Assembly (NCBI GenBank): GCA_964437555.1
Contig: CAYTHI010000005.1
Coordinates: 1 to 54,733, forward strand
DNA from: Candidatus Woesearchaeota archaeon
GTDB taxonomy: Archaea; Nanobdellota; Nanobdellia; Pacearchaeales; GW2011-AR1
Reading direction: 5' to 3'
DNA: 54,733 nucleotides
Positions 35,984-39,442 of this stretch are shown here, piece after piece; the stretch's first letter is position 1, and each line of letters opens with the position of its first letter. Under the pieces are notes generated by a model. It saw only the letters and a list, made by a program, of their open reading frames with translations. It did not search any database and was not told the DNA's origin. A program made the position numbers and the translations under genes.

Positions 35984-36184
35984 CTATTCATTCACCCCCT
36001 GCTTTTTTGCAGAGTTGGTGAATGTCAATAGTCGCGCAATTGCCTTTTTAACCTCTTTGGTCTTGGAATTTGCTTTGTTTGCAGTCACATTTGCCCTCGT
36101 CAATGCAAGTTTGAGCTCCTTCATCTTGCCTTCAATATCTTTCTTGCTCATTTTTTCTATATCCTTATACTTTAAGAGGCTCAT
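35984..36184 (-). CDS. rpl29: 50S ribosomal protein uL29
   Basis: I.KMS...L..EL, KK.IARLLT; position after rps3. Confidence 0.9.
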   Translation of the reverse strand: MSLLKYKDIEKMSKKDIEGKMKELKLALTRANVTANKANSKTKEVKKAIARLLTFTNSAKKQGVNE

Positions 36185-36864
36185 TTTCTCACCTTTCTGG
36201 ATTTTTTCTTCTTTGGCTCTTCAGCAATCTTTTCAGGAGCAATAGCAGCACTTCTTAGCATGCTTCTTAGCTGGTCATCAATAACTATTCTGTCATGAAT
36301 CTTAGCATCAGGAGGCAATATGCTGACTTTTATTCCTATAACTCCCTGCATTGTCTCTGCCTGTGCTTGAGCTCTCTTTACTACTTTTGAAGGCTCGCCT
36401 GTTTTCTTCAGATAACCCTGCGCAAATCTCCAGCTTCTTGCCCTGTCGCTTGGAAGCTTGCCGGATAAAACTACTTCCGCTCCTAACGCGCCAGCGCCCA
36501 TAATTCCTTGCAGTGTTTTATAAGCAACTATTTTAAATTTCAAAGAGCCTTTTCTTTCCAAATCCAATGCTATCATATCTGCAACTAACTGCGCGTCCAA
36601 GTATGCAACAAGAATATCTTTTATTTCTAAATGAGGATTATCAAGCTTAAATCTTTTTTTCAGGACAGTTGTCATCTCCTTTATTTTTTCCCCTCTTCTT
36701 CCAATTAAAATCCCTGGCTTATTTGTTGATACAATTATCTTTTCTCCGACAGGTGTATATTCTATTGAAACCCCGCTTATTCTTCCTTTTCCAAGCGCGT
36801 TTTTTATATACTCCTTGACTCCTAATTCTTCTTTCTTAAATGAAACAAATTTTTTCTCTTCCAT
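36181..36864 (-). CDS. rps3: 30S ribosomal protein uS3
   Basis: TPVG, KPG.LIGRRG, GA.G.E..LSGKL...RA, GYLKK.G, GVIGIKV.I. Confidence 0.95.
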   Translation of the reverse strand: MEEKKFVSFKKEELGVKEYIKNALGKGRISGVSIEYTPVGEKIIVSTNKPGILIGRRGEKIKEMTTVLKKRFKLDNPHLEIKDILVAYLDAQLVADMIALDLERKGSLKFKIVAYKTLQGIMGAGALGAEVVLSGKLPSDRARSWRFAQGYLKKTGEPSKVVKRAQAQAETMQGVIGIKVSILPPDAKIHDRIVIDDQLRSMLRSAAIAPEKIAEEPKKKKSRKVRK

Positions 36865-37958
36865 TATTTATTGTTTCCTGCTTCTATGGCTTTCATTGTT
36901 ATATGGCTTCTTTTGGCTCTTCCGCCGCCTCTTTTTGATGGCCTGCTTGCCCAATTTGCAATTCCGAAAGATATTTTTGTTTTATCCAAATCCATTCCGT
37001 TAACAATGCAATTTCCTTTTAGGCCTTTCAGCATTCTGATAAATTCTTTTGAGGCAATTATAGGGTATCTTCCTGACATCATTCCTTTTCTATGTGGTAT
37101 TTCTCCTTTGAAAGGAACAGCTTTCTTGAATTTTATAACATGCTCAAGGTCTGCAACAGCCTCGTCAATTTTCTTATTTTTTATGAATTTCAATATATAC
37201 ATGGCATGCCTCTTAGACACAGGAACGCTAAAGCTGCTTGCAACAGCCTCATGCTTCTTCTTTACTTCTTTCTTCTCTTCCGCCTTTGGCTTATGCTCTT
37301 CTGTTTTTTCTTCTTTCTTGTCTGCAATGCTTTTTTTCTTATCCTTCGCTTTGTCTTCCTGCACATCCAGGTTGTCAAATAGCTTTTCAACTTCAGGAAG
37401 TTTTTTGATACCCTCACTATCACTCATATGCCCATAATTATCAAATATTTCTATTTTGGCAATATCTTTAAAGTTTTTGTTGTAAAACTCTCTTATCTCT
37501 TCATTAACCCATCTATCTTTCTTTCCAAACAGGAAGACTATTTCATTAGAATTGCTTTTTATCTTAGATACATCAAGTCCTCTATCTTGATATTTTCTAA
37601 ATATTTCCAAATCCTTTTTATTAAGCTCTTTACCAACATTTTCGAAATATTCTTTGGAAGGATTGGAACCGACAGGAGCCACAAGAACTAACTTATTTAT
37701 TTTATATTTTTCAGCAAGTTTTAGTGCAAGCAATCCACCCATGCTATGTCCCACTATGCTTAAGTTTTCTTCTCCAATTCTCTTAATTTCTTTTTCAGCT
37801 TCTTCGAGCCACTTCTCAAATTCTGGTTCATTCGTATTTGGAAAGTCGATAGCATACGGATAATATTTTTTCCCTTTCAGAGTTTTGACTAATTCAGGAA
37901 TAAATCCTTTCTTTGAACTGTCTTCCCATCCATGTAATATCAATACTTTATTTTCCAT
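36864..37958 (-). CDS. rpl22: Fusion: RBBP9/YdeN-type alpha/beta hydrolase (aa ~1-195) + K/E linker + ribosomal protein uL22 (aa ~235-364)
   Basis: ILHGW, GHSMG, D148 and GH177; then PVSKRHA...KKAVPF..EIPHRKG...GRYP; occupies the rpl22 slot between rps19 and rps3. Confidence 0.9.
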   Translation of the reverse strand: MENKVLILHGWEDSSKKGFIPELVKTLKGKKYYPYAIDFPNTNEPEFEKWLEEAEKEIKRIGEENLSIVGHSMGGLLALKLAEKYKINKLVLVAPVGSNPSKEYFENVGKELNKKDLEIFRKYQDRGLDVSKIKSNSNEIVFLFGKKDRWVNEEIREFYNKNFKDIAKIEIFDNYGHMSDSEGIKKLPEVEKLFDNLDVQEDKAKDKKKSIADKKEEKTEEHKPKAEEKKEVKKKHEAVASSFSVPVSKRHAMYILKFIKNKKIDEAVADLEHVIKFKKAVPFKGEIPHRKGMMSGRYPIIASKEFIRMLKGLKGNCIVNGMDLDKTKISFGIANWASRPSKRGGGRAKRSHITMKAIEAGNNK

Positions 37959-37960
37959 TT

Positions 37961-38371
37961 TTATTTCTTAGCCGCCTTTGAGCCTTTGGTTGCTCCTATA
38001 CCTGCAGCAGAGTGTATAACTTTAGATCTTGTCATTGAGAATTCCCCTAATCTGTGTCCTATCATTTCGCTTGTTATTATTATGTCTTCAAATTTCCTTC
38101 CATTATGTATGCTTATAGTAAGCCCTACTAATTGAGGCACTATAACTAAATCTCTCATCTGCGTCTTGATTCTCTTTCCTCTTTGAACTCTCTTCTGGCA
38201 TGTTTTTATGAATTCTTCTATTACATTAAAATTTCTTAATATGCTTCTTCTGCTTCTTGATGTAAGATATTTTGCTGATTCCCTAACATCTAAAGTTTTA
38301 AGAAACTCCAGAGTCTTGCCGCGATACAATTTTTCTCTGCTCTGAACAGCAATTACTTCTTTCTTTTCCAT
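37961..38371 (-). CDS. rps19: 30S ribosomal protein uS19
   Basis: YRGK, R.RRS, KT..RD, HNG, EMIGHRLGEF..TR..V.H. Confidence 0.95.
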   Translation of the reverse strand: MEKKEVIAVQSREKLYRGKTLEFLKTLDVRESAKYLTSRSRRSILRNFNVIEEFIKTCQKRVQRGKRIKTQMRDLVIVPQLVGLTISIHNGRKFEDIIITSEMIGHRLGEFSMTRSKVIHSAAGIGATKGSKAAKK

Positions 38372-39067: not shown

Positions 39068-39442
39068 TTAAGTTATTAAACCGGTACTCCTTACAAATAA
39101 TTCTCTCTTATCAGCATACCTTTTATCTGATAAATCGTAAAAATGACCATAAGGTTCTTTGAAGGTTATACTTCCATCTGGATTCCAAGTTATATCTTCT
39201 TTCTTTGCTCTTTGACTCACTACATTGCGTTGTTCTCCTGAAAAACATCCAGAGAATGCAATCATGAAGGTCATAGCTCTGCCATTTTGATCTTCAAAAT
39301 ATGGAGCAGAGTCTTCAACAATTCCTTCGTAAACTGTAATATTCTGAGTACCTCTTTCATTAGATATAACCACATCTACCACGACTAATTTGTCAATACC
39401 TTCAACATCTAGGATTCTTTTAGGTTCTATTTTTGCAGCCAT
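39068..39442 (-). CDS. Hypothetical protein inserted between rpl23 and rpl2
   Basis: 124-aa ORF with 1-nt gaps to both neighbours; no ribosomal-protein features. Confidence 0.7.
   Translation of the reverse strand: MAAKIEPKRILDVEGIDKLVVVDVVISNERGTQNITVYEGIVEDSAPYFEDQNGRAMTFMIAFSGCFSGEQRNVVSQRAKKEDITWNPDGSITFKEPYGHFYDLSDKRYADKRELFVRSTGLIT

Follow-up and report, generated by a model that had tools for sequence, protein, structure and literature searches.

The sole uL22 gene of a Candidatus Woesearchaeota archaeon carries, in frame, a cassette encoding a serine hydrolase of the YdeN/RBBP9 type. The gene lies within a 54,733-nucleotide stretch of DNA (contig CAYTHI010000005.1 of assembly GCA_964437555.1, positions 1 to 54,733 of the forward strand), which was analysed at its full length and is referred to here as the window. 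The union of the cassette with this ribosomal protein is real, recurrent and selected in frame, and it represents the most ribosome-intimate anchoring of a portable cassette that is otherwise found in leucyl-tRNA synthetase (LeuRS), FtsY and eS19. The best-supported mechanism, in which confidence is about even, is that of a ribosome-tethered hydrolase acting on aminoacyl or peptidyl substrates derived from translation.

A serine hydrolase cassette within the sole uL22 gene

The fused open reading frame (ORF) spans 364 residues without an internal stop codon in the ORF listing of the window, and is predicted to specify a single polypeptide comprising a complete hydrolase, an arm and a complete archaeal uL22. 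Its features are as follows.

36864..37958, minus strand: fused gene, 364 residues plus stop, comprising hydrolase cassette, Lys/Glu arm and uL22 (ORF listing, Pfam, NCBIfam, AlphaFold2 model)
37947..37958, minus strand: first four codons of the fused gene (MENK), like the N-termini of unfused uL22 proteins (short match)
37374..37946, minus strand: YdeN/RBBP9-type serine hydrolase cassette, residues 5-195 (PF06821, fold and profile matches)
37743..37745, minus strand: codon of the nucleophile Ser72, in GHSMG (read from the DNA)
37515..37517, minus strand: codon of the triad residue Asp148 (read from the DNA)
37428..37430, minus strand: codon of the triad residue His177 (read from the DNA)
37263..37373, minus strand: predicted disordered Lys/Glu-rich arm, residues 196-232 (low model confidence, comparison with unfused relatives)
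36867..37262, minus strand: uL22 core, residues 233-364 (PRK04223, fold, PDB sequence matches)

The initial annotation of the window had described one uninterrupted ORF in the rpl22 position, coupled to rps19 and rps3, an intact predicted triad in an RBBP9/YdeN-like hydrolase, and a Lys/Glu linker of about 40 residues lacking an ATG. All of this holds: the coordinates and domains agree, the codons of S72, D148 and H177 can be read directly from the DNA, and between codons 179 and 252 the frame contains no ATG, with GTG at codons 199 and 247; an ATG at codon 178 directly follows the codon of H177. A six-frame search of the organism's own genome (a metagenome-assembled DPANN genome of 0.69 Mb in 20 contigs, 95.7% complete) gave a single uL22 match, the fused gene itself, and no second rpl22.

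Residues 5-195 match the Pfam family Ser_hydrolase (PF06821) over profile positions 1-171 of 172, with an E-value of 4.6e-12 and 46.6 bits against a cut-off of 22. In the AlphaFold2 model the domain has predicted local distance difference test (pLDDT) values of 95-98, and a Foldseek comparison of its fold matched YdeN (1UXO) with an E-value of 4.9e-14, a template modelling (TM) score of 0.85 and a root-mean-square deviation of 2.2 Å, and RBBP9 with TM scores of 0.83-0.85. A profile of 42 family members likewise matched YdeN (E 2e-44) and RBBP9 (E 1e-29). The triad residues S72, D148 and H177 show no variation in any of 143 aligned domains, counting rows with at least 150 matched positions and dropping the window's own duplicate (P0001), nor in two further alignments of the family, and the hydrolase is apparently catalytically active. 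The cassette shares with Bacillus subtilis YdeN and human RBBP9 (2QS9, 7OEX and 9FCR) the minimal α/β-hydrolase fold of about 190 residues, the Ser-Asp-His triad and the GxSxG motif; identity to them is about 20%, and both of those proteins stand alone, whereas the cassette is embedded in a ribosomal protein.

A second YdeN-like hydrolase gene, free-standing and 31% identical to the cassette, with its nucleophile in GHSIG, is found elsewhere in the same genome (C15:3576-4149). Its coding sequence falls into two overlapping frames (126 and 97 residues), and is either a frameshifted pseudogene or the product of a sequencing error.

The uL22 domain and the origin of its arm

In the protein search PF00237 matched residues 241-350 with 26.8 bits against a cut-off of 28, and in the six-frame search with 28.8 bits. 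The NCBIfam model for archaeal uL22, PRK04223, aligned with residues 231-352 (E 7e-19) at a score of 68 against a cut-off of 137, and TIGR01038 scored 52 against 80; the uL22 proteins of many unfused relatives similarly have no precomputed Pfam match. The fold of the domain matches archaeal and eukaryotic uL22 chains, including those of P. furiosus and M. acetivorans, at E-values of about 1e-9 and TM scores of 0.57-0.69, and sequence matches to archaeal uL22 in the PDB reach an E-value of 2.8e-9. The protein resembles archaeal and eukaryotic uL22 (L22P/L17e) in its fold, and also in its rps19-rps3 slot and its status as sole genome copy. It differs from them in its Lys/Glu-rich N-terminal arm, a feature of its own order, in the presence of a whole enzyme, and in scoring below the NCBIfam cut-offs and at that of Pfam.

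The linker between the two domains (residues 196-236) contains 15 Lys, 8 Glu and 4 Asp among its 41 residues. The AlphaFold2 model, built from a 53-row alignment, has a mean pLDDT of 90.1 that drops below 50 at residues 207-222, and its predicted TM score of 0.59 is in keeping with two domains whose mutual orientation is not fixed. The unfused uL22 proteins of 10 out of 10 relatives, three of them from the same genus, have a Lys/Glu-rich, low-complexity arm ahead of a core that starts between residues 43 and 123. Moreover, the window sequence KKHEAVASS..VSK aligns with KKxEAxAxG..SK in these relatives. Because the arm is present in all 10 and the sequences align, the linker is the lineage's own pre-existing uL22 N-terminal arm. 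One relative's unfused uL22 has an arm rich in Ser, Thr, Pro and Gln instead, and solved archaeal uL22 chains are 150-184 residues long.

The fused protein begins with MENK, as does the unfused uL22 of one relative (L016, MENKEIK..), and in two of the other fusions described below (P0008 and P0009) 20-50 arm residues also stand ahead of the hydrolase. Taken at sequence level, this suggests that the cassette was inserted into the arm just behind the uL22 start, rather than joined to it by loss of a stop codon between two genes; the four-residue match is itself weak.

The fusion is genuine and recurrent

The same architecture was found in 10 further protein clusters (P0002-P0011) of 355-408 residues, which are 51-65% identical over their full length and come from jgi, lgn and ena sources. 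Because the fusion recurs in this way it is not a misassembly. Across the 11 fusions 69 to 94 residues separate the catalytic His from the FIKNK motif of uL22, always in frame, and the intervening sequence varies freely. The frame has thus been kept through many junction insertions and deletions, which argues that the fused reading frame is under selection. A phylogenetic tree of the uL22 cores is poorly resolved: the best tree requires 7 changes to account for the fused rows, and the approximately unbiased test does not reject a single clade (p 0.165), so that a single origin of the uL22 fusions is neither shown nor excluded by it.

Scepticism about the gene itself could point to a chimeric contig or a lost stop codon, as the genome was assembled from a metagenome at about 8x depth and the only run containing the stretch may be its own source. 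However, a 3654-base contig produced by a different assembler spans positions 36600-38066, including the whole gene, with 0 differences and at a depth of 8.6. This second assembly derives from one public DNA run, possibly the source sample, and is a check on the assembler rather than an independent sample. No RNA run containing the stretch was listed. The identical contig, the recurrence in ten clusters of other sources and the lack of a second uL22 in the genome together leave an artefact of assembly or annotation with a negligible probability, and the one-off misassembly for which the initial annotation had allowed did not materialize.

The rps19-fusion-rps3 slot was seen for the window gene alone. 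A metagenome scan for their DNA context returned 22 loci, all with unfused uL22, and a comparison of P0002 with genome contigs gave no match. A first scan of genome contigs with the window's hydrolase domain had returned 3 loci only, and a profile of the cassette's close clade (defined below) returned 40 loci, which were generic α/β-hydrolases and included none from that clade.

In the contig graph of the second assembly there is a fork at 38037..38066, inside rps19, where an 844-base contig of depth 5.7 has only those 30 bases in common with the path containing the gene. This is probably due to a related strain or organism that shares a conserved rps19 word.

A portable cassette in translation and targeting proteins

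A search with residues 1-200 against 1.84 billion representative proteins gave 658 matches at E <= 1e-3, 16 of them at E <= 1e-30. A sharp gap separates a close clade, whose members are 47-66% identical to the cassette in this search, from ordinary free-standing proteins of about 190 residues, which are 25-38% identical; a 194-residue representative (P0124) is among the matches. Hosts were inventoried in a 5.8-billion-protein set at E <= 1e-30 for proteins of at least 200 residues, in which free-standing members may be under-counted. Between 200 and 637 residues there are 20 clusters, with uL22 (11, including the window's), FtsY (4), eS19 (2) or a piece of LeuRS (1) as partner, and 2 without an assigned partner. 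Above 637 residues there are 34 clusters, 27 with LeuRS and 7 with FtsY. A partner was therefore identifiable in 52 of 54 clusters and was always a protein of translation or targeting (LeuRS 28, FtsY 11, uL22 11, eS19 2). As for the remaining two, P0012 consists of 200 residues on a 721-base contig, and the tail of P0013 resembles the N-terminus of this genome's own uS5 (E 5e-5). The source names of the cassettes include Nanoarchaeota, Woesearchaeota and Pacearchaeota as well as Parcubacteria, Moraniibacteria and Uhrbacteria.

A tree was calculated from 90 domains, comprising every one of the 58 embedded rows together with 32 out of 85 that are free-standing. In it the close clade (29 rows, with 22 invariant positions) has a support of 96 in the Shimodaira-Hasegawa-like approximate likelihood ratio test, and is nested in a clade of 65 rows (support 98) in which LeuRS inserts predominate. 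Of the 11 uL22 rows, nine form a group with a support of 91, and two lie unresolved beside it.

The cassette, with 47-71% identity across its tight clade, has fixed boundaries (VLILHGW ... E.LF) and at least five landing sites, two of which are in LeuRS and the others in FtsY, uL22 and eS19. In LeuRS it occupies a surface loop between '..PIPIIYCDKC' and 'PVPEKDLPV..' (L026, L027, L058 and L060), and a same-genus relative of the window organism (G001) has a more distant copy at the second site, ahead of the editing domain. The other landing places in DPANN archaea and the bacterial candidate phyla radiation (CPR) are the N-terminal arm of FtsY and the end of eS19. The window organism's own LeuRS shares 59% identity with its counterpart in L026 and lacks exactly the insert, and its FtsY and eS19 are unfused. 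Six other carriers have one close copy each, in eS19 (G061), LeuRS (G062, G063, G065 and G128) or FtsY (G270), which brings the genomes with a single close copy to 7 of the 7 checked, and uL22 is unfused in those where it was seen (G061 and G062). The cassettes in LeuRS and FtsY (L026, L058, L060, L059 and P0122) are thus like that in the window in belonging to the same clade (47-63% identical), in having the same boundaries and in occurring as one close copy per genome. The difference lies in the host, which here is a core ribosomal protein, so that the enzyme would be a stoichiometric part of the ribosome.

The LeuRS proteins of CPR bacteria and DPANN archaea reach 1150-1440 residues and contain nested Ser_hydrolase once or twice, NUDIX, Ham1 and GNAT domains; one FtsY carries both the hydrolase and a His-phosphatase. 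Examples of LeuRS and FtsY proteins with nested cassettes are L027 1394..5722, P0127, P0129, P0135, P0138, P0147, P0172 and P0122. Directly upstream of a cassette-bearing LeuRS in a Nanoarchaeota genome there is a 395-residue ORF (L026 1448..2635) that looks, by eye, as if it might encode a homing endonuclease.

One polypeptide or two

A real fused gene could still yield two proteins, if uL22 were freed by proteolysis in the arm or made from an internal start (ATG178 or GTG199), and the mature ribosome would then contain an ordinary uL22. Eukaryotic fusions of ubiquitin to ribosomal proteins are a parallel for a cleaved fusion. A start at ATG178 would give a 187-residue uL22 complete with its arm, within the 172-257 residues seen in unfused relatives, and the arm, being disordered in the model, would be accessible to proteases. 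However, the Met that follows the catalytic His belongs to a family motif, GHM, which is also present in cassettes inside LeuRS, and no GGAG/GGTGA-like motif lies within 20 nucleotides upstream of codons 178 or 199, although several genes of the operon have one. Moreover, no conserved processing site was found at the junctions of the 11 fusions, which are 69-94 residues long and differ in sequence; arm length and sequence are free across the set and the frame is always kept. Finally, the nested copies in LeuRS and FtsY are not removable without cutting the host. Taken together, these points make the production of two proteins from this ORF improbable.

Evidence for and against a ribosome-tethered enzyme

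In the mechanism placed first here, the fused protein would enter the 50S subunit in the form in which it is synthesized. Every large subunit would thereby bear a single hydrolase on a flexible tether of about 40 residues extending from the uL22 globular domain beside the tunnel exit. Its substrates would most likely be produced by translation, as N-terminal residues of nascent chains or as aminoacyl or peptidyl esters, and the anchor point of the cassette would be interchangeable. Such substrates are considered the most likely because all identifiable hosts are proteins of translation or targeting and because RBBP9, the closest relative to have been characterised, cleaves aminoacyl groups with a free α-amine. 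In the same way, the exclusiveness of these partners over at least five landing sites favours a translation-linked task. A more specific proposal, which is put forward tentatively, is that the ribosome of this archaeon contains a serine esterase/aminopeptidase as a built-in part, that the cassette family is a translation-linked quality-control or maturation enzyme that trims nascent N-termini or deacylates aminoacyl and peptidyl esters, and that, needing to remain with the translation machinery, it has been re-anchored several times, on LeuRS, FtsY, eS19 and uL22. On uL22 it would then be the covalently linked equivalent of bacterial deformylase and methionine aminopeptidase, which dock at this protein reversibly.

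Partial precedents exist. The ribosomal proteins eL40 and eS31 are made as fusions to ubiquitin, and ICT1/mL62 is a hydrolase that is a permanent component of the ribosome. The window protein differs from both, as ubiquitin has no enzymatic function and is removed by cleavage, and ICT1/mL62 is a separate protein with a release factor-like fold.

A likeness in position is offered by bacterial peptide deformylase, which docks in a groove formed by uL22, bL32 and rRNA, a site that methionine aminopeptidase is reported to share (bioRxiv 10.1101/2022.04.20.488877). These too are hydrolases positioned at uL22 next to the tunnel exit; unlike the cassette, they bind reversibly and are metalloenzymes of unrelated folds, whereas the link here is covalent.

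A number of observations weigh against this mechanism. First, eS19 belongs to the small subunit and LeuRS is no ribosomal protein, from which it follows that the cassette cannot in general act at the exit site; what unites the hosts is the machinery of translation rather than the tunnel exit in particular. The initial annotation had proposed that the ribosome may carry an enzyme tethered at the exit site; of this, the fusion stands as real and recurrent, with an apparently active hydrolase, while action at the exit site does not follow from it. Second, RBBP9 is described as a serine aminopeptidase that requires a free α-amine, held by Ser76, Tyr99 and Glu108 (PMC8866121). Ser76 and Tyr99 align with Met73 and Val96 of the cassette, and the position aligned with Glu108 varies in the close clade, the alignment of the lid region being uncertain. 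As these residues are not kept at the aligned positions, the specificity of RBBP9, an aromatic aminopeptidase, cannot be transferred. Third, the fusion partners of more distant members of the family are NUDIX, Ham1, adenylate kinase and a tRNA-binding domain, and inserts of NUDIX, Ham1, GNAT and His-phosphatase occur in LeuRS and FtsY as well, which fits a general nesting of small housekeeping enzymes in tiny genomes. Fourth, the close cassette is rare, with 4 carriers among 401 high-quality genomes sampled from the phylum and none among 60 close relatives, which implies that its task is dispensable for most relatives.

Several of these points are shared by a serious and strong rival explanation, that of a hitch-hiking cassette. 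Here a general housekeeping esterase, without any task peculiar to the ribosome, would be nested in frame where essential proteins under constitutive expression have disordered arms or loops that tolerate it, and ribosome tethering would be a by-product. In addition to the mixture of insert types in LeuRS and FtsY, the NUDIX, Ham1 and adenylate kinase fusions of distant members and the sporadic distribution, this explanation accords with the different locations of the hosts (large subunit, small subunit, cytosolic synthetase and membrane receptor) and with the landing places, which are always Lys/Glu-rich arms or surface loops. What it does not readily accommodate is the choice of partners, since all 52 close-clade clusters with an identifiable partner involve translation or targeting, over the separate landing sites described above, and there is no polymerase, chaperone or metabolic host among them. 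This bias could in part reflect where Lys/Glu-rich arms exist. On balance hitch-hiking is a distinct possibility, but one judged to fall well short of probable.

A further explanation, raised in the initial annotation as a peptidyl-tRNA hydrolase role, is that the esterase on its tether takes over the recycling of peptidyl-tRNA after the loss of Pth2 from the lineage, by analogy with ICT1/mL62 of mitoribosomes. Searches with PF01981, TIGR00283 and PF01195 found neither Pth2 nor bacterial Pth in the organism's own genome, and Pth2 was present in 0 of 61 genomes sampled from the order (G000-G060) and in 1 of 27 from its own family. By comparison, 354 of 401 genomes in the phylum sample have Pth2 (348 of 395 without six matching genomes that are flagged as unpublished). 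However, the other three cassette carriers of the phylum sample (G065, G128 and G270) all have Pth2, and the 60 Pth2-less relatives have no close cassette; a YdeN-like match of any kind was found in 30 of these 60, several with internal stop codons. Moreover, peptidyl-tRNA lacks the free α-amine that RBBP9-type enzymes need (PMC8866121). There is thus no complementarity of cassette and Pth2 across genomes, and with the phyletic pattern giving it no support a replacement of Pth2 is very unlikely.

Operon context

The fused gene lies in an archaeal ribosomal-protein operon in the order uL3, uL4, uL23, an orphan ORF, uL2, uS19, the fused gene and uS3, followed by uL29, SUI1, uS17, uL14, uL24 and eS4. 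Its immediate neighbours are as follows.

37961..38371, minus strand: rps19 (uS19), upstream gene (PF00203, E 5.5e-24)
36181..36864, minus strand: rps3 (uS3), downstream gene (PF00189 and PF07650)

The stop codon of rps19 (37961-37963) is separated by 2 nucleotides from the ATG of the fused gene at 37958, and the TAA of the fused gene (36866-36864) shares one base with the ATG of rps3 (36864-36862). From this spacing the fused gene is predicted to be translationally coupled to both. The G+C content at third codon positions is 0.26 in the cassette, 0.34 in the uL22 core and 0.29-0.33 in the neighbouring genes, a difference too small to argue for recent transfer of the cassette. No direct or inverted repeats were found at the cassette boundaries (37373 and 37946), which give no hint of a transposition mechanism.

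The orphan ORF between uL23 and uL2 (39068..39442, minus strand; 124 residues) adds another foreign piece to the operon. Pfam assigns it to no family, a search of 30 relatives with this query did not recover it, and the ESM Atlas yielded no usable match.

Implications

Core ribosomal proteins are among the most conservative of genes. Neither the fusion nor the cassette was described in the open-access literature searched, which covered LeuRS, the hydrolase, CPR, DPANN and ribosomal-protein fusions. If the favoured mechanism is correct, the window would provide a natural example of a ribosome equipped with an enzyme, through a fusion whose frame has been preserved in 11 diverged lineages. The uL22 fusion also makes an uncharacterised cassette, which in ultra-small archaea and bacteria moves between LeuRS, FtsY, eS19 and uL22, directly accessible to experiment. 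Should the cassette act on the products of translation, it would be a new kind of co-translational processing or proofreading factor; should it not, it would show the extent to which enzymes are nested into essential proteins in genome-reduced cells.

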